Source: a virus | Taxonomy: Duplodnaviria > Caudoviricetes | IMG/VR virus record: IMGVR_UViG_3300036859_000414 | Location: 1-62,434 of that record | Strand: one strand, 5' to 3' | Length of the DNA: 62,434 bases | Shown here: positions 10,049 to 61,706 of the stretch, piece by piece | Numbering within the stretch: the first letter of the stretch is position 1 | How the letters are laid out: every line of letters begins with the position of its first letter | The notes under the pieces: model-generated | What the model saw: the letters and a program-made list of their open reading frames with translations, nothing else | Database searches by the model: none | What the model was told of the DNA's origin: nothing | Translations under genes and position numbers: made by a program

Positions 10049-10058
10049 AAAGAGCCTC

Positions 10059-40362: not shown

Positions 40363-40673
40363 CACCTGTGGTAGGTCGAGCTCGTGCACATCAAGAGATG
40401 TGGGAAGACTCTGTGCAAGCCGGAGACTTCTGCATCAACGAGAACGGCACGTACATCCTGTGCGTCTGTCCTTGTGGGTGTGCAGGCATGATGAACCTGA
40501 AGATCTATCCCGAAGGGACTGAAACGGTCTCGCATCCTGCTTGGTCCTGGGACGGGAACAGAGAGCATCCGACTCTCAAGCCGAGCATCCGCGACCTGAG
40601 CAGTTGTCGCTTTCACGGCTTCCTTACACAGGGCACCTGGACGTTCGAAGGCGATAGTGGAGTGAAGAGCTGA
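40356..40673 (+). CDS. DUF6527-like Cys/His protein
   Basis: CPCGC, WSWDGNREHPTLKPSI, CRFHGFLTQG. Confidence 0.7.
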   Translation: MVTPVVGRARAHQEMWEDSVQAGDFCINENGTYILCVCPCGCAGMMNLKIYPEGTETVSHPAWSWDGNREHPTLKPSIRDLSSCRFHGFLTQGTWTFEGDSGVKS

Positions 40674-43739: not shown

Positions 43740-43882
43740 CACGCAGTGAGCTGTGGGCGGCGTGGATCTCAGACAAGAAGGTCACCTTCACGCCTGAGGA
43801 GCGAGAGCAGTTGCAGCAGATGTTGGTGGAGCGAGAGCTTAGAGTGCTCAAGCTCATGAAGGACCGAAGAGACGCAGCGTGA
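43736..43882 (+). CDS. Small hypothetical protein (48 aa)
   Basis: MTRSELWAAWISDKK...; coupled overlaps on both sides. Confidence 0.55.
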   Translation: MTRSELWAAWISDKKVTFTPEEREQLQQMLVERELRVLKLMKDRRDAA

Positions 43883-45243
43883 CGAAGTATCACCGAGAGC
43901 TGATGCTGAAAGGCCTCGTCGTGAGTGCCGAGCGTCGCTCTCTGCTCGAAGTCCTGGAGGCTCATGCGTATTCGTCGACGCAAGTGCAGTTGCCACAATA
44001 TCTTGCGAGTGCGATCAAGGGTATTCAAGACCTCGTTCCGGAAGAGGACTTGGCGGAGGATGGGAAAGAGAGTGACTACCACATCACCGTGAAGTACGGG
44101 CTTCATACGAACGAGTGGATGGAAGTTGCGGAGGCACTGTCGGACGAGTCGGATCCGATCGAGTTCACCTTCGGGGAGCTCGCACTCTTTACAACAGTAG
44201 AGAAATACGATGTCCTCATCGTGCGGGTGCAGAGTGAGTGCCTCCATCGTCTCAATAAGAAGCTTTCTGAGAGGCTTGACGTAACAGATACACATCCGGT
44301 CTACTTCCCACATGCTACGGTCGCGTACATCAAGAAGGGCAGAGGCGTCCTGCTCAATGGGCGCCAGGACCTGAATGGACAGTCGGGCACCGTGTACGGT
44401 ATTCGCTTCTTTTCGAAGGGTGGAACGAACACGGACATCTTGACGGCTTCGCCGAAGGCTCTTACGGCGCGTCCTGAAAGCGAACTCGTCATGCAAGCAG
44501 CGGCTGATGAGCACCTCAAGAAGCTCGTGAAGTTGTACGAATATGCCTTCAAAATGGGCCGCCTTGGTGTTGATCGAGGAGCACTTGAGACGGCGATTCT
44601 CGCTAGGAGTGAAGAGAGCGTTCTTGCAGCGATGGCTAACGCGCCTGGCGCTGTGGGTGCTGCGATGGAGGAGTTCCTTGAAGGTGTGATCCTCAAAGCC
44701 CTAAAGGCTGGAGGGGACGCAGGTATCCGACTTCTCAAGAAGAGGATGCGCGCCGCCTCGAGCCTTCGTAGTGCTGCAGGAGAAGACGACTTCCTCACGA
44801 TGGCCTTCGACGTCTCGAATAAGAACGCTGTTGCTTGGGCGAAGAAGTACGCCGCACAGGAAGTCACGAACATTACGGAGTCAACAAGAAAGAAGATCAA
44901 GGACGTAGTCGTCAAGGCTTTGAAGGGCGAGGAAGGACCACGCGAGCTCTACAAGAGCATCCTGGAGTCTATCGGCAACAAGGATCGAGCACAGGCCATC
45001 TCGCGCTTCGAGCTGATGCAAGCGTCCAACGAAGGACAACGACAAGGCTGGTCTCAGGCGGTCGACAAAGGTCTTCTGAACGGAGATGAGAAGCGCGTCT
45101 GGATTGCGACAGAAGGCGCATGCTCTCTGTGCGAAGGGCTCGACGGACAGACCGCTCCGCTTGGCGAGGAATATCCAAACGACGGAGGAGACGGGCCTCC
45201 TCTTCACGTAGGTTGTCGGTGCACGGAAGGGCTGACAGCATGA
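43879..45243 (+). CDS. MuF/gp7-like head morphogenesis protein with N-terminal 2H phosphoesterase (Acb1/T4 57B-like) domain
   Basis: HITVKYG and PHATVAY (two HxT motifs); C-terminal RAQAISRFE, KRVW, CSLC, PPLHVGCRC. Confidence 0.85.
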   Translation: MTKYHRELMLKGLVVSAERRSLLEVLEAHAYSSTQVQLPQYLASAIKGIQDLVPEEDLAEDGKESDYHITVKYGLHTNEWMEVAEALSDESDPIEFTFGELALFTTVEKYDVLIVRVQSECLHRLNKKLSERLDVTDTHPVYFPHATVAYIKKGRGVLLNGRQDLNGQSGTVYGIRFFSKGGTNTDILTASPKALTARPESELVMQAAADEHLKKLVKLYEYAFKMGRLGVDRGALETAILARSEESVLAAMANAPGAVGAAMEEFLEGVILKALKAGGDAGIRLLKKRMRAASSLRSAAGEDDFLTMAFDVSNKNAVAWAKKYAAQEVTNITESTRKKIKDVVVKALKGEEGPRELYKSILESIGNKDRAQAISRFELMQASNEGQRQGWSQAVDKGLLNGDEKRVWIATEGACSLCEGLDGQTAPLGEEYPNDGGDGPPLHVGCRCTEGLTA

Positions 45244-47636: not shown

Positions 47637-47682
47637 GCCAGTTCGACGGCGCCTATGAGCGCTGTCAGAAGGAGTAGCACAC

Positions 47683-48120
47683 ATGGCAGTCACACAGAAG
47701 GATCCCAACACGATCTGGTTGGGTGGGCCGAGGACGGAGATCGGAGATCTTGCGGCCGAAGAGGCGATCACTCCTGGTCACCTCGTCGAACGTCACGTCA
47801 GCGCTGGCGTGATCCGCTGGAGGAAGCACGCTACCGCAGCCGTTGCGACCGCACGCGCAGTGGCGACCGAACAGTCGATGCTCAACCAGGGTGTCGATGA
47901 CGCCTACGCCGCTGGAGACCTCATGGAGGTGTCCGAAGGCGCCGGCGGTTCGACGTTCTGGATGCTGATCGCGTCTGGTCAGACCATCGTCGCAGGCGAC
48001 AAGCTCGAGAGCGCGGGTAACGGTACGCTGCGCGTTCTCGCATCGGGCGTCGCTCTGTTCTCGGCTCTCGAAGCCAAAACCGCAACCGCTCTGACGCGCA
48101 TCCGCGTCGAAGTCGTCTAG
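47683..48120 (+). CDS. Head decoration / cement protein
   Basis: AITPGHLVE...YAAGD...GDKLESAGNGTLR; located between scaffold and MCP. Confidence 0.8.
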   Translation: MAVTQKDPNTIWLGGPRTEIGDLAAEEAITPGHLVERHVSAGVIRWRKHATAAVATARAVATEQSMLNQGVDDAYAAGDLMEVSEGAGGSTFWMLIASGQTIVAGDKLESAGNGTLRVLASGVALFSALEAKTATALTRIRVEVV

Positions 48121-48153
48121 CATCGACGCCACATAGCGTCAGGAGGAATCTAC

Positions 48154-49200
48154 ATGTTCGATCAGATGCGTTGGACAGCCGGCAACGGCAAGAGCCCGAT
48201 CGCAGGAGCGCTTCTCCGGTCTCTCGGAGAACAGGGGGAACTGTCCATTCCCGCCTTGCGCGCTCTGTCGCCGTTGAGCGACAAGGCACAGGTCATGGTG
48301 GACAAGGCTGTCGTCGAGGTGGGTCTCGAACGGCTGGTGTTCGCGGCGGACCTGATGGCGGAAGGGCTGACGTACAGTCTCCCCGATCCTCTCAGCGTGA
48401 CACAGCTCGAGTGGGACCAGGGGAACAAGATCGGCACTGCCCAGAGGACGATGAGTCCTGCGGCTCGTGGAGAGAACCAGCTCCAGGATCGCAAGCACAA
48501 GCGGTTGCCGATCTACCTCACCACGGATGACTTCTCGCTCGGCATCAGAACACTGAAGATGTCCGAGAGGGTCGGTCAGCCGCTGGACACGGCGATGATC
48601 AAGCAGTCGGTTCGTCGGGTGAACGAGAGCATCGAGGACGCCGCCATCAACGGTGCCACGACTCTCGACGGCCAGGCGTTGACCGTTGCGGGTTACGGTG
48701 CGCCGGGTCTCCTGAACGCGCCGAATGCCAACACGCAGGCTCTGAGCGTCGACTGGACGGCAGCGAACGTCGTGGGCACCACGGGTCCTGCGATGATCAA
48801 CGACGTTCTTGCGATGATCGCGAAGGCTCAGGCGGACCTGAAGTACGGGCCTTACAACCTGTACATCGGGACGACGGCTGGGACGGTCATCGAAGGCGAC
48901 TTCAAGGTCAACACGACCGACACCATTCGGGAGCGTCTCGAGCGCATCCAGGTTGGTGGTCGGCCGCTGCGGATCAGGATCGCCGACAGGATGCCGAACA
49001 GCGCGACGGGGACCCAGATCGCGCTCGTGCAGATGACCAGCGACGTGGTCGAGATGGTGAACGGACAGCCGCCGACGGTGATTCCGTGGACCTCGCTCGA
49101 CGGGTTCACGTTGTACTGGCTGATCATGGCCATCATGGTCCCGCGCGTACGCGACGACTACGACGGCAACTCGGGCGTCGTGCTCGGAGTCAAGAGCTAG
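48154..49200 (+). CDS. Major capsid protein (HK97 fold, encapsulin/linocin-like family)
   Basis: 348 aa; strong RBS; LPIYLTTDDFSL, GLLNAPN, YGPYNLY, IMAIMVPRVR. Confidence 0.88.
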   Translation: MFDQMRWTAGNGKSPIAGALLRSLGEQGELSIPALRALSPLSDKAQVMVDKAVVEVGLERLVFAADLMAEGLTYSLPDPLSVTQLEWDQGNKIGTAQRTMSPAARGENQLQDRKHKRLPIYLTTDDFSLGIRTLKMSERVGQPLDTAMIKQSVRRVNESIEDAAINGATTLDGQALTVAGYGAPGLLNAPNANTQALSVDWTAANVVGTTGPAMINDVLAMIAKAQADLKYGPYNLYIGTTAGTVIEGDFKVNTTDTIRERLERIQVGGRPLRIRIADRMPNSATGTQIALVQMTSDVVEMVNGQPPTVIPWTSLDGFTLYWLIMAIMVPRVRDDYDGNSGVVLGVKS

Positions 49201-49209
49201 TAGGGACGA

Positions 49210-49240
49210 GGGTTGGAGGAGAGTAGGTCTCCTCCAGCCC
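49210..49240 (+). terminator. Hairpin after MCP (attenuator or mRNA stabiliser)
   Basis: GGGTTGGAGGAGA-gtagg-TCTCCTCCAGCCC. Confidence 0.55.
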
Positions 49241-49266
49241 GTACTTCACAGCCTTGGGAGGGCAAA

Positions 49267-49539
49267 ATGAGTACACCAACACCACCAGTACCGCCGACAC
49301 CACCAACGCCTGCAAAGCCGTTCGTGTCTGACTTCGTCTTCACAGGACTACCAGGCACACCGTTCAACATCGAGCGTAAGGCAGGAGGGTTCGGCAAGCC
49401 TGGAAGCGTGAGCGTCGGAGGCACGATCGTCTCACTCTCTTCGTGGACGGATCAGAAGATCAAGGGTGAGATTCCCAAGAGCGCCAAGATGGGTCCTGTC
49501 GTCGTGACTACGGAAGACGGCGTGACCTTCAAAGGATAG
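49267..49539 (+). CDS. Small IPT/TIG-like virion protein with a Pro/Thr-rich N-terminus
   Basis: GFGKPGSVSVGG...SWTDQKIKGEIP...GPVVVTT. Confidence 0.7.
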   Translation: MSTPTPPVPPTPPTPAKPFVSDFVFTGLPGTPFNIERKAGGFGKPGSVSVGGTIVSLSSWTDQKIKGEIPKSAKMGPVVVTTEDGVTFKG

Positions 49540-49542
49540 ACG

Positions 49543-50154
49543 ATGCCAACCATTGACGCCGCAGTTGGTGGTGCGAGTTCGAACTCGTACGAGACGCACG
49601 CAGAAGCGAACACGTACTTCGACGAGAGGCTCCCTCTTAATCCTCCGTGGGTGACGAGCGGACAGGAAGCCGTGTTGATCATGGCGACGAGGCTATTGGA
49701 CGCGCTCGCACAGCCGTTCAAGACCTTCTTCCCAGCCATGAATGGCTCTCCTGCGTACTACCGAGTGCGGCGTCAGTGGACTGGTAGTCCCGCCACAGCG
49801 ACCCAAAGGCTCGCATGGCCTCGCGTCGGAATGTATGACTCGAACGGCAATGCAATTGCGAGCAACGTTATTCCCATCGAGCTCAAGTGGGCAGAGAGTG
49901 AGCTTGCGGGACAGCTTCTCAAGGCCGATAGGACTCTCGACAACGATGTGATCGTGCAGGGCGTTACGAGTGTGAAGGCTGGGAGCGTTGCTCTGACCTT
50001 CAAGGAGAACATCATCCCGCAGGTGATACCGGATGCCGTGTACAACCTGCTGCCACAGAGCTGGTTGACCGACGAGCTCTACGTGATGGCCAACTCCGCA
50101 CAGTTCGACGTCGTGAGTGAAAGGCCTCCGGTGCTCGGAGAGGAGTCACTATGA
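49543..50154 (+). CDS. Head-tail adaptor (DnaT-like family)
   Basis: SNSYETHAEANTYF, ATRLLD, QRLAWPR, IPIELKWAESELA. Confidence 0.85.
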   Translation: MPTIDAAVGGASSNSYETHAEANTYFDERLPLNPPWVTSGQEAVLIMATRLLDALAQPFKTFFPAMNGSPAYYRVRRQWTGSPATATQRLAWPRVGMYDSNGNAIASNVIPIELKWAESELAGQLLKADRTLDNDVIVQGVTSVKAGSVALTFKENIIPQVIPDAVYNLLPQSWLTDELYVMANSAQFDVVSERPPVLGEESL

Positions 50155-50534
50155 GCCTCTTGGACGTCGTGAGAGCTGGTGTGGCTCTTGCGAATACGAT
50201 CACACAGCCTTTGCAGGCTACGGTCGTGTACGAGAGACGTCTTACGTCTGATGATCAGGGGACTGGCGCCTTCGCCGCTCCAGTGAACCTCAAGGCCATC
50301 GTCGACTGGAAGCAGAAGCAGATCAGAACGCCGACTGGCGAGCTGTCTGTGAGTCGATCATACGTGATGTTCCTCGACATCGTTGCACTTGTTGCAGCTA
50401 CCGGCGGAGAAGGCATCAACGACCAGGACCTGATCACTCTGCCAGACGGGACTACGGGACCGATCTTGGACATGAGTGGGTTCATTGATGCAGGGACAGG
50501 ACACCCCGTGGCGACCGAACTGTGGCTGGGATGA
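50151..50534 (+). CDS. Head closure protein (putative)
   Basis: Position after the adaptor; DLITLPDG. Confidence 0.7.
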   Translation: MSLLDVVRAGVALANTITQPLQATVVYERRLTSDDQGTGAFAAPVNLKAIVDWKQKQIRTPTGELSVSRSYVMFLDIVALVAATGGEGINDQDLITLPDGTTGPILDMSGFIDAGTGHPVATELWLG

Positions 50535-51298
50535 TCACCATTTGCATGACCTACTTCAAGAGTCTCCAGCTTGCAAACCTCGAAGCTGCTCTCTACTCGG
50601 TAGGGAGGCAGAGGCTGGATCACGTGCAGGAGATCATCCTGCTGGACAACAACACGGAGGACACGTACGAGGATGTGAAGTGGGCCGTTGAGCATGCGAA
50701 GGTTCCGAAGCCTGTCAGTATCATACAGGCGAAGCATGGGGATAGGACTAAGACGCACGCGTGGTCGAGCAATAGAGTCATCGGACAAGCGAAGACGCCT
50801 TGGGTCTTCTTCACGCGAGCAGATTACATCCTGGACTTCAGGCTCCTGGACAAGTGCATGATGGTCATAGAGCAGTATCCGAGAGACGACTGGGACGGGT
50901 TCATCACTGGACACGTCTATCATCTCGGAGTCGACATCGGCGTCGTGAATCACGCAGCGTGGCGGCAAGAAGGCCCACAGGTTCTGAAGGGCCTGCCTGG
51001 CGTGGAGAACGACTATACGAGTATCGATTCTGGCGTCTGGATGGGACGGAGAGCGTCTTGGGAGAGGGTCGGAGGACTCGACGAGCGGCTTACGGCATGG
51101 GGGCATGCTCAGACAGACTTCCAGCACCGACTCTACGAGACTGGGACTGAGTTCGTGAAGATCCACGAGGCTCTGTTCTACCACCCTCAGCACAGCGCGG
51201 AGCGCGATATAAACGCAGCACACGAGCAGTTGAAGGCACAGGGTAGAGACATTCGTGAGATGTGGAAGAGATACGACGGAAAGAAGCCTTACTCATGA
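50531..51298 (+). CDS. Glycosyltransferase, GT2/GT-A fold
   Basis: EIILLDNNTED, FFTRADYIL, VGGLDERLTAWGHAQTDF. Confidence 0.85.
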   Translation: MITICMTYFKSLQLANLEAALYSVGRQRLDHVQEIILLDNNTEDTYEDVKWAVEHAKVPKPVSIIQAKHGDRTKTHAWSSNRVIGQAKTPWVFFTRADYILDFRLLDKCMMVIEQYPRDDWDGFITGHVYHLGVDIGVVNHAAWRQEGPQVLKGLPGVENDYTSIDSGVWMGRRASWERVGGLDERLTAWGHAQTDFQHRLYETGTEFVKIHEALFYHPQHSAERDINAAHEQLKAQGRDIREMWKRYDGKKPYS

Positions 51299-52011
51299 GA
51301 CCTTACAACCGCTCGCTCCACCCTGACGACTACGCCTTTCTCGCGAAGTGGGATACGGAGCTCCATGCGTTTCTGGATACGATGGTGAGGAGAAAGGTGC
51401 CGCATCGTGAGTGGCACCCACATCGGTTCTGGGAGTACGCGTCGATGATGCAGCAGATGGAGGAGCTCGGAATGAAGAGCGACATCGAGCTCATCGATGT
51501 GGGAGCAGGAGCGTCTTTCTTCGATCCGTTCTGCGCCTTCTACTATCCTCGTCTGTGCTGCACCGACTCCATGAAGTACGGAGACGTGACCCCGATGGTC
51601 GAGGCGCAGAGAAGAGCGTATGACGTTGCTCTTCCCCTCTACGACCTGATGCTCGAGGACATGAGTCCGAAGTGGGAAATTGGCTGGGGCGGAGCGACGA
51701 ACAAGTTCGATGTGACGATGTGCATCTCGACCATCGAGCATGTAGACGGGCACGACCAAGCGATGAAAGAGCTGATCAGGATCACGAAGCCAGGCGGTTA
51801 CATCTTCATCACCAGTGACTACTTCAGGGACCACGCTCAGTGGGAGGCCTCTCCGTCCAGGCATCTTCAAGTCACACCCTACATGCAAGAGAGCGTTGAA
51901 GCACTTCCTGCAAAGTTCGGCCTCGAGTTCGTAGGTCCCACGGACTTCGGGTATAAGGGAGACTTCGTTCACACGTACTCGTTCTGCAACCTCTGTCTTC
52001 GTAAACCATGA
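51295..52011 (+). CDS. Class I SAM-dependent methyltransferase
   Basis: RFWEY, LIDVGAG, FDVTMCISTIEHV, ITKPGG. Confidence 0.88.
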   Translation: MRPYNRSLHPDDYAFLAKWDTELHAFLDTMVRRKVPHREWHPHRFWEYASMMQQMEELGMKSDIELIDVGAGASFFDPFCAFYYPRLCCTDSMKYGDVTPMVEAQRRAYDVALPLYDLMLEDMSPKWEIGWGGATNKFDVTMCISTIEHVDGHDQAMKELIRITKPGGYIFITSDYFRDHAQWEASPSRHLQVTPYMQESVEALPAKFGLEFVGPTDFGYKGDFVHTYSFCNLCLRKP

Positions 52012-52061
52012 CCAGTATCCACTTGGCTCTTCGGAGCCATGACAACGGAAAAGGCCAATGA
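52008..52061 (+). CDS. 17-aa mini-ORF coupling the methyltransferase and radical SAM genes
   Basis: MTSIHLALRSHDNGKGQ*, ATGA overlaps at both ends. Confidence 0.35.
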   Translation: MTSIHLALRSHDNGKGQ

Positions 52062-53662
52062 GCAAAATCATACCTGTCTCGTCTCTCAACTCCGCTTACC
52101 AGATGAGCGGAGAGGGAAGCTGTTCGACTGTCACAACTTCGGGCCTTCCGATCAGGAAGATCCCACGCAAGAAGATTCACTGCATCCTGCCGTCGAGCCC
52201 GTGGCTGGCAGACTCGAAGACCAACGTGCCACTCGGTGTGCTGTACATCGCAGGCCTCCTGCGCGAGCAAGGACACGACGTACGAGTGACGTCGATGCTC
52301 GACAAGCGCTATGAGGGCAATATCCACCTGCCGGAAGAGGTGATGGACAGTGACGTTCACATGTTCGGGTTCTGCACGCCACAGTTCGGAGAGGCGCTCG
52401 AGCTCGCGGCGTACATCAAAGACAGGTGTCCTGAAGCGCTGCTGGTTGCTGGTGGTCCTCATCCGTCGTACGAGCCGAAAGAGGTCTACGAGGCAGGGAG
52501 ACAGGAGCATTACCATTACAAGGGTGTGCTGGCTCAGAGGAGAGACTATCGCGCGGCTGACGGACGCAGACTGTTCGACTCTGTCGTTGTGATGGAAGGA
52601 GAGGTCGCTGTGCTCCAGCTCCTGTCGGACTGGGATGCTGGAAAGCTCCAGCCGTACTACTACGGCGATAAGGCCGATGCGATGGACCTCGACGCCATTC
52701 CATTTCCGGCCTGGGATCTTCTGCCGAAGGACCACATCTACAACGACGGCGTCGCGGTCATGAAGAAGAGGTACTTCCCGTCCGATATCCATCCGGATGC
52801 GAGCGGTGCTGTCATGAGCCTCATCGGCACACGCGGATGTCCTTACAAGTGCACGTACTGCAGCACGCCGTGGATCGGACAGAAGCCACGCTATCGCTCG
52901 CCACACAACATCATCACTGAGATGAGCCTTGTCATGGACAAGGGCGTCCGGATGTTCAAGTTCCAGGACGACACCTACACGCTGCACAAGACCAAGCTGA
53001 GGGAGTTGGCCGATGCCATCGACAGTGCCTTTGGACGAGACGCTTTCGCTGCGAGAATCCATACACGAGTCAACACTATGGATGATCATGTCGCTGAGTC
53101 TCTCAAGCGCATGTCCTGCAAGGTTACGTGCTTTGGCATCGAGAGCGGATCACAGCGAGTTCTTGACGCGAATCAGAAGGGAACGAAGGTCGCGCAGAAC
53201 ACGGCTGCGATCATCAAGGCTAAGGAGCACGGCTTCTACACCATCGCGTTCCTCGTGATCGGCATGGCTGGAGAGACGCTGGAGACGATGAAGGAGACAC
53301 AGCAGTGGCTTCTCAGCGTCAAGCCCTACCTCGACTCGTGCAACCTCGCTGTCGGCATCCCGTATCCTGGCTCGAGGTGGTGGACCCATCCGCAAGAGAG
53401 CGGCATCGACATTAGGGATTACAACTACGACAACCAGTGGATCGTCGGGTTCTCGGCACGAGACGAGATCCTCGTTCGGCCACACGGAGCGACGGTCGAC
53501 GACATGTTCAAGATCAAGCGCGAGATGTTCGACTTCCTCGTGTATCACGGCTGGGCGAAGGCCGAGTGGGACGAGGATGTCAGAATCCGTAAGCAGCAAG
53601 AGCAGGCTGCTCTCGAAGGCACTCTGACGGCTGCGTCTGGCCTGACGTACGCGGGGCACTGA
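52058..53662 (+). CDS. Cobalamin (B12)-binding radical SAM enzyme
   Basis: PLGVLYIAG, VAGGPHPS, GEVA, TRGCPYKCTYC, FQDDT, FGIESGSQRVL, PYPGS. Confidence 0.93.
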   Translation: MSKIIPVSSLNSAYQMSGEGSCSTVTTSGLPIRKIPRKKIHCILPSSPWLADSKTNVPLGVLYIAGLLREQGHDVRVTSMLDKRYEGNIHLPEEVMDSDVHMFGFCTPQFGEALELAAYIKDRCPEALLVAGGPHPSYEPKEVYEAGRQEHYHYKGVLAQRRDYRAADGRRLFDSVVVMEGEVAVLQLLSDWDAGKLQPYYYGDKADAMDLDAIPFPAWDLLPKDHIYNDGVAVMKKRYFPSDIHPDASGAVMSLIGTRGCPYKCTYCSTPWIGQKPRYRSPHNIITEMSLVMDKGVRMFKFQDDTYTLHKTKLRELADAIDSAFGRDAFAARIHTRVNTMDDHVAESLKRMSCKVTCFGIESGSQRVLDANQKGTKVAQNTAAIIKAKEHGFYTIAFLVIGMAGETLETMKETQQWLLSVKPYLDSCNLAVGIPYPGSRWWTHPQESGIDIRDYNYDNQWIVGFSARDEILVRPHGATVDDMFKIKREMFDFLVYHGWAKAEWDEDVRIRKQQEQAALEGTLTAASGLTYAGH

Positions 53663-54327
53663 TGGCTTTCAGCAGAGTCAGTGTCTTGATCCCGACACGC
53701 AAGCGTCTTGATCGCCTCGGCAGGATGTTGGAGTCCTACGAGGCGACCACGAGAGGCGTAGAGGACAAGTCCGAGCTGGTCTTCCGAGCGGATGAGGATG
53801 ATCCAGAGACTGTCGAGTTCCTGAAGAGCAGAGGGTACTGGGTGGGAGTCGGACCGAGAGAGAACGGCTATCGGAGCCTCCCACTCTTCTTCAACCAGCT
53901 GCTCTCAGGAGCGACGGGCGATGTGCTCATGTGTGGGAACGATGACATGGTCTTCGTCACTCCAGGCTGGGCACCGAAGCTCTTGGCGACAGCGGATCTG
54001 TTCGTGGACGGAGTGTTCGATCTTGGAGTGCGCACACATAACGAGACACACTTTCCGTTCGCATGTGTCTCACGGCGTGTCGCAGACCAGATCGGCTTCC
54101 TCTTCGATCCTCGGATCTTCTGGGGAGACATCTATCTGCGAGACGTGATGGCGCACTTCGGACGGTGCGTCTACGTCCCGGATGTGCAGATCGATCATGA
54201 ATGGATGGGTCACGCACCTGATCCGACATTCCTCGAAGGCGAGAAGGCACGACGCGACTCGCACATGCAGTACCATGCGATTGCAGTGGACGAAGCAGTC
54301 CAGAAAGTGAGGGAGTTACTCCAATGA
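53662..54327 (+). CDS. Glycosyltransferase, GT2/GT-A fold
   Basis: SVLIPTRKR, DEDD, GNDDM, FWGD. Confidence 0.85.
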   Translation: MAFSRVSVLIPTRKRLDRLGRMLESYEATTRGVEDKSELVFRADEDDPETVEFLKSRGYWVGVGPRENGYRSLPLFFNQLLSGATGDVLMCGNDDMVFVTPGWAPKLLATADLFVDGVFDLGVRTHNETHFPFACVSRRVADQIGFLFDPRIFWGDIYLRDVMAHFGRCVYVPDVQIDHEWMGHAPDPTFLEGEKARRDSHMQYHAIAVDEAVQKVRELLQ

Positions 54328-54959
54328 TCCCGGTGTGTGTTCCTGTTCTGAACAGGCACGATCTCTTCGAGCGGCTTCGAGATTCTCTCGAGGCAGGAGA
54401 GGTCAAGCCTCCGCAGATCATCGTCATTGACAATGGTCAGAAGTGGTCGTGGAGACCAAAGGAGGGAACGATTCCGGTCGAGGTCTTTACACCCATGAGA
54501 CCGATGGGTGTGGCTGAGAGCTGGAACTGGTTCATCGATAGAGCGGATAGTGACGTGCTGCTCGCGAACGACGACATCGTCTTCGGACCTCAGTCCTACG
54601 GGACGCTGATCGCACAGCCGTCCTGCTTCGTGAGCTGCCACTACGGGTTCTCGTGCTTTGTGCTCAGGCGTGAGTGCGTGGAGAAAGTCGGACGATTCGA
54701 CGAGACCATCTCTCCCGGCTACGCCTACTACGAGGACCGAGACTACTACAACAGAATGCAGGTTGCGAGGATTCAGGACATCGTCGTGGAGTGTGGAGTC
54801 CTGCACGAGCACAGTGCAACCTTGCAGGTCTACACGCCCTTGCAGATGGAGGAGCATCATAGAAAGTTCGCGATCGCGCACAAGAACTTCTTGAAGAAGT
54901 GGGGAGAGTCGGAGTGGTCACCTTCATTGTCCCGACCGTCGGCCGTCGAAGCCTCGTGA
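54324..54959 (+). CDS. Glycosyltransferase, GT2 fold
   Basis: VPVLNR, VIDNG, SWN, ANDDI, VGRFDE, YYEDRDY. Confidence 0.88.
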   Translation: MIPVCVPVLNRHDLFERLRDSLEAGEVKPPQIIVIDNGQKWSWRPKEGTIPVEVFTPMRPMGVAESWNWFIDRADSDVLLANDDIVFGPQSYGTLIAQPSCFVSCHYGFSCFVLRRECVEKVGRFDETISPGYAYYEDRDYYNRMQVARIQDIVVECGVLHEHSATLQVYTPLQMEEHHRKFAIAHKNFLKKWGESEWSPSLSRPSAVEAS

Positions 54960-55480
54960 GGACACTCGAGAGCATTGAGTGCTGGCCAGGAGATGAGATT
55001 CTCCTTGTGGGAGATGGTGTCTACTCCAACGATCATCGGTGTCGGCATATCCTCGTGAACAGAGGGAACGACTGGGGACACTCGGAACGGAACCATGCGA
55101 TGAAGTTCGTACGAACTCCGTACATGGCCCATATCGACGACGATGACTGGTACGTGCCTGGGTCGAGGGCAGTGATCCAGGATGCCATTCACAAGATGGA
55201 GAAGCCTGCACCCATCCTGTTCCGTATGCAGTTCCCGTGCGGAATCGTGCTCTGGCAGGATAAGGATGTGCGGTGTGGCAACGTCGGGACACCGATGATG
55301 ATCATGCCGAACGAGCAGGAGAAGCTCGGGAAGTTCCTTCCGTTTGTGGGAGGGGACTGGGCCTTTCTCAGCGACTCAAAGTGGAACAAGGAGGACATCG
55401 TCTGGAGAGAAGAAGTCATAGCGCTCTTGGATCATGATCCAGGAGCACCGTCAAGTGCATATGCGTCTGGGAGGGCGTGA
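54914..55480 (+). CDS. Glycosyltransferase, GT2 fold
   Basis: IVPTVGR, LVGDG, GHSERN, IDDDD, GNVGT, GGDW. Confidence 0.85.
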   Translation: MVTFIVPTVGRRSLVRTLESIECWPGDEILLVGDGVYSNDHRCRHILVNRGNDWGHSERNHAMKFVRTPYMAHIDDDDWYVPGSRAVIQDAIHKMEKPAPILFRMQFPCGIVLWQDKDVRCGNVGTPMMIMPNEQEKLGKFLPFVGGDWAFLSDSKWNKEDIVWREEVIALLDHDPGAPSSAYASGRA

Positions 55481-55481
55481 T

Positions 55482-56651
55482 ATGAGAAAGAAACTGCTGT
55501 GGGTGGGAGACGCAGGAGTCCCAAGTGGGTTCGCGAAAGCGACTCACAATATCCTGCACTACGTGATGCGAGAGTACGACGTGACGGTCCTCGGGATCAA
55601 CTACCGAGGAGACCCACATGCGTACCCGTACGACATCTTCGCTGCGGCGCCAGGTGGAGACTTTCTGGGAGTCGGACGGCTTATTTGGATGTGTGATGCG
55701 GTCAAGCCGGACGTGGTCGTCATCCAGAACGATCCATGGCTCCTACCGCTGTACCTCAAGAAGCTGAAGAGCATCAAGGAGTACGCGAAGATCCCCGTCG
55801 TCGCTGCGTGTGCTGTCGATGGGAAAGGTCTCGAGTTCAAGCCGATGAACGGATTCGACCTTGCGATCTTCTGGACCCAGTTCGGCCTCGATGAGAGCAG
55901 AGCTGGAGGCTACGAGGGTGCGGCCTGTGTCATTCCGCTTGGTGTCGATACGAAGGTCTTCCACCCGATGGACAAAAAGGAAGCCAAGAACAAGAGGCTT
56001 CCAACCCTCGTCGACAACTTCATCGTTGGCAACGTGAACCGTAACCAAAGCAGGAAGCGCTTAGATCTTACGATAAAGTGCTTCTGCGAGTGGGTGAAGG
56101 ACACGAGGAACCATGATGCGCAGCTCTATCTGCACGTTGCGCCGACGGGTGATACGGGTGTCGATGTCGTCCGGCTTATGCGGTACTACGGGCTGCTCGA
56201 TCGACTTGCTCTTGTGCAGCCGGACACGTGGTACGGTATCACGGAAGAGGAGATGTGCCTCACGTACAACTGCTTCGATCTGCAGGTCACGACGTCGATC
56301 GGAGAAGGCTTCGGCCTTACGACGTTCGAAGGAGCAGCGTGCGAGGTCGCACAGATCCTTCCGAAGCACTCGGCTCTGCTGGAGTACTTCGAAGGCGCGG
56401 CGTGGCTTGTGGACTGCTCGTCCACGATGGTCCTCGATCCGAACAGCGCGATCGGAGGAGTGATCGACGAGCACAAGTTCATGAGCGCACTGGACGCCAT
56501 GTACAAGAATCCACGGTACATCGAGAACAATGGACAGGCTGCCAGAGAGCGTGCTGCTCAGACACGCTTTACCTGGGAGCACGTTGGTCAGATGTACCTC
56601 GACGCGCTGAAAGGCGTGTTCGAGCGAAAGGAAGAGGTCGTAGGAGCCTAA
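55482..56651 (+). CDS. Glycosyltransferase, GT4/GT-B fold
   Basis: SGFA, IPLGVD, NRNQSRKRLD, GEGFGLTTFEGAAC. Confidence 0.9.
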   Translation: MRKKLLWVGDAGVPSGFAKATHNILHYVMREYDVTVLGINYRGDPHAYPYDIFAAAPGGDFLGVGRLIWMCDAVKPDVVVIQNDPWLLPLYLKKLKSIKEYAKIPVVAACAVDGKGLEFKPMNGFDLAIFWTQFGLDESRAGGYEGAACVIPLGVDTKVFHPMDKKEAKNKRLPTLVDNFIVGNVNRNQSRKRLDLTIKCFCEWVKDTRNHDAQLYLHVAPTGDTGVDVVRLMRYYGLLDRLALVQPDTWYGITEEEMCLTYNCFDLQVTTSIGEGFGLTTFEGAACEVAQILPKHSALLEYFEGAAWLVDCSSTMVLDPNSAIGGVIDEHKFMSALDAMYKNPRYIENNGQAARERAAQTRFTWEHVGQMYLDALKGVFERKEEVVGA

Positions 56652-56652
56652 G

Positions 56653-57069
56653 ATGATCAAGGGGTCGATGGGCGGCGCAGACCAGGTAGTCTCGACGATC
56701 AAAAAGATCGCTGGCAAGTTTCCTGACCGAGTGGCGAAAGCCATCTATCAGGAAGCCCAGATCGAGATGACGGAAGCCAAGCGTCGTACCCCTGTCTCTC
56801 CTACTCCTGCACCGAAGGGAGTCGTTCCTGGTGCTCTACGAGCAAGTGGTACTGTGCATGAACCTCGACGCTCTGGGAACGACATTCACGTGCAGATGTC
56901 CTTCGGAAACTCTTCTATCGACTACGCAATCGTGCAGCACGAGAATCTGGACTACCATCACACCACAGGACAAGCAAAGTACCTCGAGAGCGTACTGAAC
57001 GAGTCCAGACCACACATGGCAGCACGAATCGCAAAACGCATCTCTCTCAACAATCCGGACGCGAAGTAA
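56653..57069 (+). CDS. Tail completion protein (HK97 gp10-like)
   Basis: AKRRTPV...GALRASG, YAIVQHE, AKYLE. Confidence 0.85.
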   Translation: MIKGSMGGADQVVSTIKKIAGKFPDRVAKAIYQEAQIEMTEAKRRTPVSPTPAPKGVVPGALRASGTVHEPRRSGNDIHVQMSFGNSSIDYAIVQHENLDYHHTTGQAKYLESVLNESRPHMAARIAKRISLNNPDAK

Positions 57070-57474
57070 ATGCCTATCCTCGACGAGATCAAAGCAAGGC
57101 TGGTTGCGCAAGCTGTGCTTCCTGACGCCTCGATCCTGAAGACGGGGAGAGCCGTGATCCCTCCAGGCGATGGTCCGTACATCAGTCTGGTAGAGACAGG
57201 CGGGACAGGCGCTGCAAGGACACAGAACGACACAGCGACCGAGCGTCCATCGGTGTCCATAACTTCTCGAGCGAAGACTGCTCAGGCCGCTCGAGCTGCT
57301 CTCAAAGCTGCGTACGATGCCTTGGGAGGTGCTAACGGGCTGACGAATGTCACACTGAGCGGAACGTTCTATCTGAGCATCACAGCAACACAAAACATCA
57401 CCGACATCGGAGAAGACGCGGCAGGAAGATTGATGTACGTCTTCAACATCGGTACGGAGAAGCAACCTTCGTAG
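57070..57474 (+). CDS. Tail terminator (putative)
   Basis: ETGG...ERPSVSI..RA; position before the tail tube gene. Confidence 0.75.
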   Translation: MPILDEIKARLVAQAVLPDASILKTGRAVIPPGDGPYISLVETGGTGAARTQNDTATERPSVSITSRAKTAQAARAALKAAYDALGGANGLTNVTLSGTFYLSITATQNITDIGEDAAGRLMYVFNIGTEKQPS

Positions 57475-57489
57475 AGGAGAGACACAGAC

Positions 57490-57933
57490 ATGACAATCGC
57501 AATCAGTTCACACGGAACAAAGGTTTCTCGAGCTCCGAGTGCTACTCCGACCACGTTCACGGAGATCGCTGAGCTGGGAGACTTGAAGCTACCCGAGCTC
57601 ATGCGCAATGAGTTCGACGCGTCGGTGCACAACAGGAACATCGACGACTACGTGCTGGGGATCATGAGAAGGAATGCCTTCTCCTTTCCCTTGAACTTCT
57701 TGCCGACGAACGCCACGCACGACCATCTGACTGGTCTGTACAAGGCGCTCATCGACAACTCGATCGACGGCTACAAAATCGTCTTTCCGGACGTGGCGCT
57801 GACGGAATGGATCCTCAGCGGCCAGGTCCAGACGATCGCACCGACAGCACCAGTGGATGGGAAGCTGAGTGCGGATGTCACCATTCGCTTCAGCGGTCCG
57901 ATGGTCGTCGGAGGTGTGGTGGTCGGTCTCTAG
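57490..57933 (+). CDS. Major tail tube protein
   Basis: FTEIAEL, LNFLP, YKIVFPD, APVDGKLSADVTIRFSG. Confidence 0.85.
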   Translation: MTIAISSHGTKVSRAPSATPTTFTEIAELGDLKLPELMRNEFDASVHNRNIDDYVLGIMRRNAFSFPLNFLPTNATHDHLTGLYKALIDNSIDGYKIVFPDVALTEWILSGQVQTIAPTAPVDGKLSADVTIRFSGPMVVGGVVVGL

Positions 57934-57940
57934 AGCTGCC

Positions 57941-58030
57941 CTCCCACAGCAGCCAGGAGAGGTAGGTCTGCCGGTCTCAGACCTCTTCTGGGCACGATTC
58001 GTGAGACCGGCGCATTCACTCTGTGGGAGG
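57941..58030 (+). promoter_or_regulatory. Structured intergenic element (pseudoknot candidate) covering the tail-chaperone RBS
   Basis: Helices 57941-49/58021-29, 57953-63/57981-91 and 57970-79/58002-11. Confidence 0.55.
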
Positions 58031-58039
58031 AGAAGAGAG

Positions 58040-58444
58040 ATGACAACGACGTTGAATGAGGTGCCTGTGGTTGCGAAGTCCAAGGTAGTCAGCCGGAACG
58101 AGTTCCTCGCGGAGGATACCACGTTCTACAAGAAGATTCCTGGCTTCAAGCCGGACACGCTCTTCTGTCTGAGGAGTGTCTCTGCCGGTGCGATCATCGA
58201 GTGGCAGGAGGCGAACGAGGAGGCGAAGAGGACTGCAGGGCTTCGTCTGATCATTGCTGCGCTGGTTGATGGAGAGCCGGGTGTGGACGAGGGTGCGAGC
58301 GGCATGCCTCTCCTGACCGACAAGGATCTGCCGATGCTGCGGAGCAAGGCGCACAAGATCACCGAGGGCATCGTGAAGGAGATCATCGACATGAACGCCA
58401 TGCAGGTCGTCGGCGCGAAGAAGGAGGAGTCAAAAAACTCCTAA
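58040..58444 (+). CDS. Tail assembly chaperone (G)
   Basis: Between tail tube and TMP; ends TCA AAA AAC TCC TAA. Confidence 0.85.
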   Translation: MTTTLNEVPVVAKSKVVSRNEFLAEDTTFYKKIPGFKPDTLFCLRSVSAGAIIEWQEANEEAKRTAGLRLIIAALVDGEPGVDEGASGMPLLTDKDLPMLRSKAHKITEGIVKEIIDMNAMQVVGAKKEESKNS

Positions 58445-58824
58445 GGCGGAGTCCTTTACGACGTCTCGCTCACCGGCTTGCTGAAATGGCGGGTGAGTGG
58501 GACGTCGATGGGATGCTCCGCCAAATGCCGATGCAGAAGCTCTTGAGCTGGATGGCGTACTGGGAACTACAGGAGGAAGAGCAAGGGACTCCAGAGTCGT
58601 TGAGAGCGGATTACCGCGCTGCTTCGATTCGAAAGACCATTGCGGATGTCTTCCGAGGCCAGAACAAGGCGCCGTATCCGCTGGAGAACTTTCGGCTGAA
58701 GTTTGACAAGGAAGTAGAGGCGAAGACTCCTCTCACTCCAGAGGAGAAGGTTAGTCAGAACGTTGCGATAGCCCACATCATCGCGATGGCACATAATACC
58801 AGTCTGAAAGAGACGGTGCACTAG
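58432..58824 (+). CDS. Tail assembly chaperone -1 frameshift extension (GT)
   Basis: Slippery A AAA AAC at 58432-58438; the -1 frame reads LLRRSPLRRLAHRLAEMAGEWDVDGML...WMAYWE. Confidence 0.8.
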   Translation, partial: KKLLRRSPLRRLAHRLAEMAGEWDVDGMLRQMPMQKLLSWMAYWELQEEEQGTPESLRADYRAASIRKTIADVFRGQNKAPYPLENFRLKFDKEVEAKTPLTPEEKVSQNVAIAHIIAMAHNTSLKETVH

Positions 58825-61706
58825 TGGATATCGGAACCCTTACAGGCCACATTGCCATCGAGGATCAGCTTACTGGCAAGCTGACTCAGATGGCCTTTCA
58901 GGTCAAGCAGTTCGCCCATGATGTCGATGGAGCCTTTGGCGCCATGGCTATTGGCGCGACTGCTGTCGTTGCTGCCTTCGCGAGTGTGGCGACTGGCATT
59001 GTGGCACTGGGCAGTAAGGGTTCTACGATCCTCGGAGTAGAGAATGCATTCAATCGACTGGCGAAAGCTGCTGGGTCGACAGGGGATGCGCTCATAGAGG
59101 GATTGGACAAAGGTCTGCGAAGCACCGTCGACTCCATGGAGGAGATGCAGGCAGTTTCGAATGCCATGACTGCGGGAGTGAGACTCTCTGCGGATGACCT
59201 CGAGCTGATGGGTAAGGCTGCGAGAGAGATGGGAAAGGCGACAGGCACCGATGCCACGCAAGGCTTGGAGACCTTGTCGACAGCGTTGACGACGGGAAGG
59301 ACACGAGCTCTTGCCATGGCAGGAATCGTAGTCGACCTGTCCACAGCAGAGCAGGACTACGCAGACAGTTTGGGCATCTCGGCTTCGCAGCTCACGGAGA
59401 ACCAGAAGCTCGAAGCGAAGAGAATTCAGATTCTCCAGGCGACTCAGGAGTACGTCGATCGGCTCGGTGATTCCCAGCTCTCGTTGAAGGAACGAGTGCA
59501 ACAGGTCGGAGTCGCTATCGGCAACTGGTTCGATGATCTAGCGAAAGGCATCGCACAGAGCCCTGCTGTCATTGAGGCCTTCGATACCATTCGAGATGCA
59601 ATGCAGGAGACCTTTGGAGAGTCGTCTCAGAGCCTCCTGAAGACCATCCTCGGCTGGGTGGACCAGTTCGCGAATGCCGTTACGGCGTACGGACCGACGG
59701 TTATAAAAGTCTTTGGTGGCATCTACGACTCCATTCGAGGGATCTGGACCACGGTAACCGAAGCCTGGAACACAATACCGGACTGGCTTAAGGCGATTGG
59801 ACGAGACGCTATCCTCGCAGGAGGAGCTCTACTCGTCGCAGGAAAGTCTCTAGGCACTCTCACCACTGTCATGGAGAAAGTGACAGGAGAGGAGATGACT
59901 GGAGGAGTGCGGAGTCTCGTAGGAGACTGGGGAGGTCTATCTTCCGCATTGGCTACTACTACTACTACGATCAGGAATCTGCCTGATGCCTTCGCGAAGG
60001 TAGGGGAAGGTATTTCGACTGCTCGAAAGAGCATCAACGCTCTTGCTGACGGTTTCGTAGCTGCGGCAGGTTCTTCTGCAACTTTCTTCGCACAGTTGGG
60101 AACCGGACTCGTAGTAGCTGCGTCTGTTGTAGCCGTGGGCACGGCAGGATACCAAGCGTGGAAGCTGTGGGGAGAGAGTGCTGAGAGAGCTGCAGCGGCT
60201 GAGCGTCAGGTCGAGTACGACACGGCGAATCTTGCACGCATCAACGAGAAGCTTGGCACGACGTACAACAACCTCGACGACGCAGTCGTTGCTGCAAGAG
60301 AGAAGCTTGGCGAGATGCAGGCAGAGACCGTGCAGCTTACCGAGGCTGAGAAGGCTGCCATGGAGGCTGCGAGACAGCACGAAGAAGCTGTTTCGAAGCT
60401 CTACGGTTCGTACGCGGATGCTGCTGCGAAGGTGGACCTTACTACAGAGGTCTTCGAGCGTCTCACAGGCGTCCAGAAGCTGAACTACGACGTACAGAAG
60501 CAGCTCATCGCTGCCTTTGACGAGCGGATCGAACGAGGCGGGCAGCTCACGGAGAAGGAGAAGGACTACTACGAAGCAGTGCTCATCAGCAACAAGAACC
60601 TCGACGACTCGCGCGTGAAGATGCTCGAGAAGAATAAGGTTACGCTCGAGCACATCCAATCCTTGAAGGCGATGGGCTTCTCGGAAGCCGAGATCGCGAT
60701 GAAGCTTGGCACGACAACGAAGGCTCTCAAGGACTACGAGTCTCAGCTCTCCTCGCTCGACAGGCTCCAGAAGCAGTACAACGACCAGCAAGCGAAGCTG
60801 AGCATGACGTCGCACGAGTACGCTGTGCGAGGGTATCAGCTTGAGTACGAGGAAGCCGTGAAGGCCCTCGACAAGACCTCTCTGTACTACCAGCAAACAG
60901 CAGACAAGCTCGCTGCGATCCGCAACGCGAAGATCGCTGCAGAAGGCTCCTCGTGGTCTACGATCGCAGAGCAGTCGAGAGAAGCCTTGCAGGCTCAGGC
61001 TGACGCAGCTCTCGAGGACTACAAGCGGATGCAGTACAGCGGTCTCACGTTCATGCACGAAGTGCTCGACGCGCAGCTCAAGAAGTACAGAGACCTCCAG
61101 GAGGCGACTCAGAACTGGGGCGGCGAGACCGAGAAGAAGGTCGAGGACATCACACAAAAAGTCACGATCCTCACTGGTGCCTGGGCGTCCTACAACAGCG
61201 GTCTGAATGAGTCCATCACCAAGGTCCAGACGTTGCACGGTGAGATCATCAGCCTTGCAGAAGCAGAGAGACGTCGTACCAGTGGCGGCTCGATGACGTA
61301 TGATCTTTCGACCGAACAGGGGATTCAAGAGTACTTCCAGCAGAACACGGCGGCACGCACGAACCTGACCAACCAGCAGATCATGGCAAGGGTAGAGAAG
61401 GGAGCCACTCTCGAAGACCTCGTAAAGTCTGGAGCCATCAATCCTTACGGTGGGTTCGGCAGTGGTTTGAACATCCCTGGTGCTGCATCGGGTGGTCTCG
61501 TTCGTGTAGGAGAGGACGGTCCCGAGATCGTCCAACTGCCTGGAGGTGCACAGGTCTATCCGACAGGCACCGGTCCTGGTGGTGGAGGTCCGACTGTCGT
61601 TGTGAACATCGGGCCTGTGAATGGAACAGCAGACCAGCTGGTCCAGGTAGTGAAATCTCGTCTGATGCGAGAGCTGAAGACGATCCGTCAATTCCCGTCG
61701 TCGTAG
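58824..61706 (+). CDS. Tape measure protein
   Basis: 960 aa, Ala-rich and helical; C-terminal ASGG...VGEDGPE. Confidence 0.92.
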   Translation: MDIGTLTGHIAIEDQLTGKLTQMAFQVKQFAHDVDGAFGAMAIGATAVVAAFASVATGIVALGSKGSTILGVENAFNRLAKAAGSTGDALIEGLDKGLRSTVDSMEEMQAVSNAMTAGVRLSADDLELMGKAAREMGKATGTDATQGLETLSTALTTGRTRALAMAGIVVDLSTAEQDYADSLGISASQLTENQKLEAKRIQILQATQEYVDRLGDSQLSLKERVQQVGVAIGNWFDDLAKGIAQSPAVIEAFDTIRDAMQETFGESSQSLLKTILGWVDQFANAVTAYGPTVIKVFGGIYDSIRGIWTTVTEAWNTIPDWLKAIGRDAILAGGALLVAGKSLGTLTTVMEKVTGEEMTGGVRSLVGDWGGLSSALATTTTTIRNLPDAFAKVGEGISTARKSINALADGFVAAAGSSATFFAQLGTGLVVAASVVAVGTAGYQAWKLWGESAERAAAAERQVEYDTANLARINEKLGTTYNNLDDAVVAAREKLGEMQAETVQLTEAEKAAMEAARQHEEAVSKLYGSYADAAAKVDLTTEVFERLTGVQKLNYDVQKQLIAAFDERIERGGQLTEKEKDYYEAVLISNKNLDDSRVKMLEKNKVTLEHIQSLKAMGFSEAEIAMKLGTTTKALKDYESQLSSLDRLQKQYNDQQAKLSMTSHEYAVRGYQLEYEEAVKALDKTSLYYQQTADKLAAIRNAKIAAEGSSWSTIAEQSREALQAQADAALEDYKRMQYSGLTFMHEVLDAQLKKYRDLQEATQNWGGETEKKVEDITQKVTILTGAWASYNSGLNESITKVQTLHGEIISLAEAERRRTSGGSMTYDLSTEQGIQEYFQQNTAARTNLTNQQIMARVEKGATLEDLVKSGAINPYGGFGSGLNIPGAASGGLVRVGEDGPEIVQLPGGAQVYPTGTGPGGGGPTVVVNIGPVNGTADQLVQVVKSRLMRELKTIRQFPSS

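Follow-up and report, generated by a model that had tools for sequence, protein, structure and literature searches.

The linear IMG/VR virus record IMGVR_UViG_3300036859_000414, which was analyzed over its whole length and is called the window here (62,434 bases, estimated completeness 73%), carries seven enzyme genes between two head-tail connector genes of its late operon. All seven lie on the + strand from 50531 to 56651, in the order GT2a (a family 2 glycosyltransferase), MT (a methyltransferase), a radical S-adenosylmethionine (SAM) enzyme with an N-terminal B12-binding-type domain, GT2b, GT2c, GT2d, and GT4 (a family 4 glycosyltransferase). By analogy with gp35-38 of the mycobacteriophage Corndog, and not by homology to them, we read this cassette, with somewhat better than an even chance of being right, as a cytoplasmic glycan builder that is expressed late, occupies a variable slot in the neck region, and would glycosylate at least one virion protein during assembly with a radical-tailored sugar. 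Virion glycosylation is favored because the cassette sits in the late structural operon in two unrelated backbones, its enzymes are soluble, base-hydroxylation genes do not co-occur with it, and cultured phages (Corndog and Synechococcus phage S-CBS4) offer analogies.

A sequence-only reading of this DNA had described seven tightly coupled enzyme genes between the genes for head closure and tail completion, and this description holds: the open reading frames (ORFs) lie where it had placed them, their position is in the neck part of the late operon, and relatives keep them there. The stop codon of the upstream connector gene (conn1) overlaps the start codon of GT2a as ATGA, and the junctions within the cassette are ATGA overlaps or gaps of no more than 46 nt. 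The start codon of GT4 is likely the ATG at 55482. The GC content of the cassette resembles that of the rest of the contig. The class labels given earlier stand for the five proteins that score above the Pfam cut-offs (Table 1), but GT2b and GT2c fall below them and are recognized as GT2-like through their relatives, GT2b by a homologue in locus L004 that reaches 41.5 bits and GT2c by BLASTP to gp15 of Synechococcus phage S-CBS4, annotated as a 'galactosyl transferase' (27% identity, E 8.7e-14). The AlphaFold2 (AF2) model of GT2a has a mean predicted local distance difference test score (pLDDT) of 94, and its top Foldseek matches, the chondroitin polymerase K4CP, SpsA, and WrtF, are generic for the GT-A fold. 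An acceptor type was sought in this fold and rejected, since the high-confidence model yields generic GT-A neighbors only. Searches of the PDB by phmmer with GT2a, GT2d, and the methyltransferase gave nothing informative.

None of the cassette proteins has a membrane-like segment, the highest 19-residue hydropathy being 1.41. This bears on conversion of the host envelope, in which soluble transferases would act on a lipid-linked or polymer precursor, such as lipopolysaccharide, capsule, or a teichoic-acid-like polymer, and would exclude competing phages or stop the progeny from re-adsorbing. For pelagimyophages, PMC7029224 gives this interpretation to tail-fibre-region cassettes with glycosyltransferase and radical SAM genes, taking the transferases as modifiers of the host O-chain; TarS and TarP, glycosyltransferases of wall teichoic acid, are among the Foldseek matches of GT2a; and a lone GT4, the content of the slot in 17 of 24 relatives, would suffice for the addition of a side chain. 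However, the cassette is without a flippase, an initiating phosphoglycosyl transferase, or any membrane protein, and the scanned ORFs of the window include no integrase or repressor, which leaves no sign of the lysogeny in which conversion pays. In addition, expression from the late operon comes just before lysis, and promoter-like and terminator-like sites in 47500-59000 show no excess over the shuffled expectation, and no promoter specific to the cassette rises above chance. We consider envelope conversion unlikely.

A scan with a capsid profile gave 60 viral loci, 24 of which contain both borders of the slot, conn1 and the 138-aa gene g138. Slot occupants were detected by homology to the window genes, and the 24 loci include three near-duplicate pairs, so that the independent cases are fewer. 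The slot is empty in three loci, where the borders are 14-185 bp apart and conn1 abuts the g138 homologue. GT4 is the commonest occupant and, in 17 loci, the only cassette gene, together with 0-4.3 kb of unrelated extra DNA. One locus holds GT2c and GT4, another holds GT2c, GT2d, and GT4, and two hold the full seven-gene set. Five slot records with extra DNA were scanned for domains; GT2 domains were found in two of the five and radical SAM domains in none. Locus L098 (15608-21090) carries GT2a, the methyltransferase, a 409-aa GT2b, GT2c, GT2d, and GT4 without the radical SAM gene, and the radical step is for this reason regarded as optional. Among the relatives, the three with an empty slot (L052, L054, and L055) differ most from the window in the tail tube (29-31% identity), although the identity of their capsids is 64%. 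This is a hint that the content of the slot varies together with the type of tail tube, but the three may be a single lineage.

The synteny across phages to which the sequence-only reading had pointed as a check is found both in this graded slot and among the structural genes of a backbone unrelated to that of the window. Scanning with the radical SAM protein yielded 32 viral loci, which were labeled by tblastn grouping: 18 belong to group A, with window-type structural genes; 13 to group B, with L011-type structural genes (TerL phrog_9, a fused protease-capsid protein phrog_617, portal phrog_2271, and a collagen-repeat protein); and one, L025, to group C. The structural proteins of group B have no tblastn match to those of the window at E 1e-5. 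A virion-module homologue adjoins the cassette in 31 of the 32 loci, and in three genomes that are complete, with terminal repeats, its place is between the genes for capsid and tail tube. GT2a is present in all 28 loci that cover the upstream side (the L025 copy is only 32% identical), and the order GT2a-(MT)-radical SAM-GT2b is kept. GT2b and GT2d each occur in 31 of the 32 loci and also in L034, and GT2c is restricted to group A. The methyltransferase is missing from several loci and has a median identity of 64% in 22. The order in L011 is a collagen-like protein, three further transferase-like genes, GT2a, radical SAM, GT2b, GT2d, a head-tail adaptor, two unknown genes, and another GT-B gene. 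The core (GT2a, radical SAM, GT2b, and GT2d) lies between TerL and the capsid gene in L019 and behind the adaptor in L023. The collagen-repeat protein of group B (PF01391, 117 bits; 6196-7119 in L011) has a globular C-terminal domain and homologues in L012, L014, L018, L022, L028, L029, and L032; it always immediately precedes the block of glycosyltransferase genes, at a place between portal and head-tail adaptor. In L020, the radical SAM gene (9100-10704) is split into ORFs of 71 and 457 aa, the split being a frameshift, a pseudogene, or an assembly error.

No other gene of the cassette comes near the conservation of the radical SAM gene, whose median identity to the window is 84% (n = 30, range 59-91%), compared with 45-54% for the glycosyltransferases, 51% for the capsid, and 57% for the tail tube. 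Four-fold degenerate third positions at conserved residues are only 0.34-0.38 identical, even for a pair with 91% identity, and the same is true of the capsid and the transferases. The synonymous sites are thus saturated, which indicates strong purifying selection over a long divergence and not a recent transfer; as judged from these substitutions, the enzyme is functional and constrained. A quick maximum-likelihood tree, obtained by a short search, mixes both backbones, and its well-supported branches force at least three changes of the backbone label per group. By this tree, the radical SAM gene has been exchanged between the backbones.

One match was found in the contigs of a one-genome-per-species set, a 54-kb contig binned with a Sulfuricaulis metagenome-assembled genome (MAG). 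That contig is also the only close cellular match of the radical SAM protein among 301 genomes of the class of this MAG (902 bits); the other 43 matching genomes, one of them flagged as unpublished, reach no more than 169 bits. The atlas look-alikes with the same two domains are mostly viral clusters. Among the deposited phages, only Streptomyces phage SF3 gave a match, with 26.5% identity over 42% of the protein and beside thymidylate kinase and NUDIX genes; it was set aside as uninformative because of this different context. Inteins are present in seven of the best 120 database homologues (P0025, P0030, P0039, P0045, P0052, P0088, and P0093). In the four homologues examined, the intein lies before the first (P0093), the second (P0025 and P0088), or the third (P0039) cysteine of the CxxxCxxC motif; the three sites fall within eight residues, and each time the cluster cysteine is the +1 residue. 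L032 (9974-12850) has an intein at the third site in a continuous 958-aa frame, and the window copy is without an intein.

The window enzyme has the class B radical SAM architecture, as its Radical_SAM and N-terminal B12-binding domains both exceed the Pfam cut-offs. The motif CPYKCTYC provides the cysteines C261/C265/C268, which are invariant in 24 homologues. The B12-binding match PF02310 spans residues 58-146, and the AF2 model (pLDDT 83.8) shows an alpha/beta domain before the barrel. A profile search of the PDB places AprD4 first (E 1.4e-26) and MgmA second; Foldseek with the AF2 model also places AprD4 first (6FD2, E 2.2e-21, TM-score 0.62 for the query and 0.72 for the target), followed by MgmA, TsrM, MiaB, CysS, OxsB, and TokK. 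The NCBIfam equivalogs are all far below their cut-offs: BchE with 108.9 bits vs. 481, PhpK with 100.5 vs. 600, HpnJ with 98.4 vs. 578, the MgmA family TIGR04014 with 87.1 vs. 360, and AprD4 NF033070 with 63.1 vs. 500. AprD4 is a sugar 1,2-diol dehydratase that is not known to use cobalamin although it has the same domain. It works with a partner reductase, and none of the cassette variants examined showed an AprD3-like one. The 'C-methylated' glycan proposed earlier is not established because AprD4 is the solved structure that comes closest, both by profile and by fold, and every equivalog falls below its cut-off. We put methyl transfer by this enzyme at a little under half. C-methylation is one option, and, as far as the sequence and the model indicate, a dehydration, deoxygenation, or rearrangement of the AprD4 kind could be another.

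The same comparisons raise the possibility of a protein substrate, in which the radical SAM enzyme would act on a structural protein, C-methylating or cross-linking one of its side chains in the way that MgmA modifies methyl-coenzyme M reductase, and the glycosyltransferases would serve a separate function in a shared slot. The second-best structural and profile match is indeed MgmA, a glutamine C-methylase, and TIGR04014 and methylases of ribosomally synthesized and post-translationally modified peptides are among the weak NCBIfam matches; however, the top match, AprD4, modifies a sugar. Furthermore, the radical SAM gene keeps the company of GT2a in 28 of 28 loci covering the upstream side, in an unchanged order, and its identity of 75-91% across backbones whose structural proteins show no detectable relationship would be expected of an enzyme with a small substrate common to all of them more than of one acting on a protein peculiar to a lineage. 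A protein substrate is therefore very improbable in our judgment.

For the acceptor, the sugars, the order of the steps, and the radical chemistry of the favored virion glycosylation, we infer the following route. GT4, which is the commonest and often the sole slot occupant in relatives, or GT2a would take the first sugar from a host nucleotide sugar and attach it to an exposed residue of a structural protein, and the small GT2 enzymes would then lengthen the chain. The SAM-dependent methyltransferase would O- or N-methylate a sugar, and the B12-domain radical SAM enzyme would modify a sugar radically, either by C-methylation or by an AprD4-like dehydration/deoxygenation or rearrangement, as an optional tailoring. 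Its substrate would most likely be small and universal, for example a nucleotide sugar or the sugar that starts the chain, which would account for a near-invariant radical SAM enzyme accompanied by drifting transferases. The near-invariance across unrelated backbones fits such a substrate, and transferases that fit lineage-specific acceptors would drift in the way the structural proteins do. More tentatively, and with somewhat less than an even chance, we propose that these B12-domain radical SAM enzymes are a phage-restricted, near-invariant family that makes a sugar modification new for virus particles (C-methylation or radical deoxygenation) and that moves, together with its partner GT2, as a mobile unit from one structural operon to another among unrelated phages.

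The capsid protein and the small protein encoded from 49267 (the 49267 protein) are candidate acceptors only. Pro/Ser/Thr-rich segments had been named earlier as possible acceptors; they do occur, in the 49267 protein and close to the portal N-terminus, but they are not conserved among the relatives, and a homologue of the 49267 protein was detected in two of the 32 loci. The 49267 protein lies in the frame of the capsid gene (49198-49539), one stop codon and four codons apart, and read-through would give a capsid-linker-domain fusion. This shared frame may be chance; the relatives have other genes in between.

Several observations weigh against virion glycosylation. No protein stood out as the acceptor, and neither the C-terminal end of the capsid protein (...NSGVVLGVKS) nor that of the tail tube (...VVGGVVVGL) is Ser/Thr-rich. 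A conserved Pro/Ser/Thr-rich acceptor adjoining the cassette was considered and rejected, group A being without a consistent low-complexity protein, and so was a collagen-like acceptor: collagen-repeat proteins precede the cassette in eight group B loci, and their repeats are rich in charged residues and not in Thr. For a cassette that passes between backbones with unrelated structural proteins, the acceptor must be generic or else absent from the virion, and the position of a gene predicts the time of its expression and not its target. The window cassette has no detectable homology to Corndog gp35-38 (best BLASTP E 0.064), a tblastn search with GT2a gave no match among the 50,697 phage records deposited, and mycobacteriophages are absent from the tblastn matches of both GT2a and GT4. 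The best Pfam model of GT4 was built for 'conflict systems'. The exception is L025, whose record of 116 kb is 76% complete: here the radical SAM gene, a methyltransferase, and one weak GT2 adjoin a primase zinc ribbon, PolA, and a HerA-like ATPase and not recognizable structural genes; the two GT-B genes of this record lie 59 and 77 kb away, and the genes downstream have no Pfam or phage match. The virion glycan of the sequence-only reading thus keeps the support of the operon position and of the Corndog parallel inside the head module, but no acceptor and no homology to the mycobacteriophage enzymes were found for it, and L025 is an exception.

The model of GT4 and the replication genes beside the L025 radical SAM gene also speak for hypermodification of DNA or nucleotides, in which the transferases would glycosylate a modified base of the phage DNA and the methyltransferase and the radical SAM enzyme would tailor the adduct, which would protect the DNA against nucleases of the host. 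According to PMC12619734 and PMC7029224, the modification of DNA is the classical role of phage glycosyltransferases. In the window, GTP cyclohydrolase I (FolE), a QueE-like radical SAM protein, and a phrog_3704 'ferredoxin' are encoded in the early module at 21542-22114 (-), 24353-25093 (-), and 19975-20631 (-), respectively. Going by the sequence, these genes suggest a 7-deazaguanine DNA modification pathway; DpdA/TGT and QueC/QueD were not recognized among the window ORFs scanned. However, these deazaguanine genes are on the other strand, in the early module and approximately 25 kb away from the cassette. A thymidylate-synthase-like hydroxymethylase and Tet/JBP were not found in the ORF scans of the window, which covered the larger ORFs and 46 further ones of a contig that is 73% complete. 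The sequence-only reading had held that a cassette unlinked to structural genes and co-occurring with base-hydroxylation genes in relatives would speak against a virion glycan, and for the most part this is not what we found: the cassette is in the structural module in 31 of the 32 viral loci, L025 being the exception, and in the records of five relatives the thymidylate-synthase-like family PF00303 occurs once (in one of the three complete ones), FolE in none, and the Tet/JBP family PF12851 in none, although the positive control for the latter was silent. DNA hypermodification is quite unlikely on this balance.

The late operon occupies the + strand from approximately 37.5 kb to the end of the window (Table 1). 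Between the Mu F-like protein and the cassette it encodes a protease/scaffold-like protein of 838 aa, a decoration protein, the major capsid protein, an Ad1 adaptor (phrog_477), and the connector; 3' of the cassette follow g138, the second connector, the major tail protein, a tail assembly chaperone, and the tape measure. The 558-aa ORF is probably the large terminase, a guess made from its size and its place before the portal. The Mu F-like minor head protein contains an N-terminal 2',5' RNA ligase/2H-phosphoesterase domain, for which the model of Acb1, directed against the cyclic-oligonucleotide-based anti-phage signaling system, gives 21.5 bits, below its cut-off of 27; from its sequence, the protein could be a counter-defence enzyme packaged in the virion.

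Table 1. Genes of the cassette, its borders, and other late-operon genes discussed in the text.
Feature	Coordinates	Strand	Assignment
Large terminase candidate, 558-aa ORF (probable)	38686-40362	+	No Pfam family; place directly before portal and size
Portal	40673-42469	+	Phage_portal_3
Mu F-like head protein, N-terminal 2H-phosphoesterase/Acb1-like part	43879-45243	+	
Major capsid protein	48154-49200	+	PHROG match; phrog_771 and phrog_264 reported for the 48154..49539 pair
Small protein, Pro/Thr-rich N-terminus	49267-49539	+	No Pfam family
conn1, head-tail connector, upstream slot border	50151-50534	+	phrog_3881, E 2.3e-5
GT2a, GT-A fold family 2 glycosyltransferase with Glyco_transf_7C C-terminal part	50531-51298	+	Glycos_transf_2 27.9 bits (cut-off 23.3); Glyco_transf_7C 28 bits (cut-off 23)
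MT, class I SAM-dependent methyltransferase	51295-52011	+	Methyltransf_11 32.2 bits (cut-off 21.2); also Methyltransf_23
Radical SAM enzyme, N-terminal B12-binding-type domain	52058-53662	+	Radical_SAM PF04055 68.7 bits (cut-off 29.5); B12-binding PF02310 42.3 bits (cut-off 32.1)
GT2b, small GT2-like glycosyltransferase	53662-54327	+	PF00535 18.5 bits, below cut-off
GT2c, small GT2-like glycosyltransferase	54324-54959	+	PF00535 16.7 bits, below cut-off
GT2d, small GT2 glycosyltransferase	54899-55480	+	PF00535 25.9 bits, above cut-off
GT4 (GT-B fold) glycosyltransferase	55434-56651	+	GT4-conflict PF20706 32.5 bits (cut-off 26)
g138, unknown 138-aa neck-region gene, downstream slot border	56653-57069	+	No PHROG or Pfam match; syntenic in relatives
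Head-tail connector	57070-57474	+	phrog_2595
Major tail protein	57490-57933	+	phrog_158

The - strand carries replication genes from 6.5 to 37 kb, including a DNA ligase, a PD-(D/E)XK nuclease, the FolE and QueE-like genes described above, and a family A DNA polymerase (PolA) fused to an N-terminal domain of the uracil-DNA-glycosylase superfamily (16953-19433). A 1047-aa protein with an IPT/TIG domain is encoded at the start of the window (51-3194, +), and next comes an SLT lytic transglycosylase (3652-4254); probably the two represent the tail fibre and lysis functions, with the late operon continuing across the contig ends. No tRNA genes were found in the window, and no near-identical DNA exists among the 50,697 deposited phage records. 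The contig is that of an uncultured siphovirus. Its major capsid protein is closest to those of two Brevundimonas phages (33% identity), the structural operon of which is without such a cassette. Nothing in the data points to an actinobacterial host or shows that the phage is an actinobacteriophage.

To our knowledge, the phage particles experimentally known to be glycosylated are those of a few actinobacteriophages only. If virion glycosylation is the correct reading, the trait extends to a large group of uncultured phages with at least two unrelated backbones; if the more tentative proposal of a mobile radical SAM module is correct as well, the diversification of virion glycans would be a widespread arms-race trait of environmental, probably proteobacterial, phages instead of a peculiarity of actinobacteriophages. 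With virion glycosylation, a defined genomic slot in which the complexity of the glycan ranges from zero to seven or more enzymes would be the pattern expected of a surface under diversifying selection, and radical SAM chemistry would join the glycans of virus particles. The sequence-only reading knew of no described virion glycosylation pathway that uses a B12 enzyme, and the literature searches likewise brought up no paper on a B12 radical SAM enzyme in such a phage cassette. Many homologues of the window enzyme are labeled at JGI as 'anaerobic magnesium-protoporphyrin IX monomethyl ester cyclase', the name that goes with bchE (K04034); many viral 'bchE' auxiliary metabolic genes would, on the more tentative proposal, be tailoring enzymes of virion glycans, and viral 'bchE' matches should not automatically be taken as porphyrin metabolism. 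The enzyme is a good biochemical target, being highly conserved despite saturated synonymous sites, with inteins at three positions of its Fe-S motif and no close cellular homologue other than the MAG contig in the 301 genomes searched.

The cassette was compared with several known systems. Gtr-like and TarP-like envelope modules have membrane components or a link to lysogeny, which were not found in the window cassette or the scanned ORFs, and the base-hydroxymethylating or hydroxylating enzyme that belongs to the glucosylation of hydroxymethyl bases was not found in the scanned ORFs of this 73% complete contig. Viral bchE is listed as a heme/chlorophyll-related auxiliary metabolic gene in PMC13452462. 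Compared with such genes, the window enzyme sits among glycosyltransferases in a virion operon and reaches only 108.9 of the 481 bits set for the BchE equivalog. The cobalamin-dependent class B radical SAM methylases, such as MgmA (9CCB), TsrM, TokK, CysS, and the GenK-type sugar C-methylases, share its two-domain architecture, but the equivalog models, HpnR included, remain far below the cut-offs. In the case of AprD4 from apramycin biosynthesis (PDB 6FD2), an N-terminal Rossmann domain is likewise followed by the radical SAM barrel and the substrate is a sugar, but the two proteins are only 18-19% identical. The gp14-gp16 set of S-CBS4, located between the portal and the protease/capsid genes, includes homologues of GT4 (gp14, 34%, E 1.9e-55) and GT2c (gp15, 27%, E 8.7e-14) and a SAM methyltransferase; it differs in having three genes only and no radical SAM enzyme. 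Cassettes for virion glycosylation have reportedly been described in mycobacteriophages, in Corndog, where the cassette was studied by experiment, and also in Che8 and Myrna. Unlike the hosts of those phages, the host of the window phage is not known to be an actinobacterium. In the mycobacteriophage type, according to PMC12619734, the capsid or tail-tube protein ends in a Ser/Thr-rich extension that serves as the acceptor, but such tails are not seen on the capsid or tail tube of the window. The Corndog cassette sits between gp34 and the major head protein, from the portal region to the capsid gene, and is without a radical SAM enzyme, whereas the window cassette sits in the neck and has one. 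The likeness between the two lies in the methyltransferase and the three tandem glycosyltransferases of gp35-38, which are encoded on the late strand, inside the structural operon.

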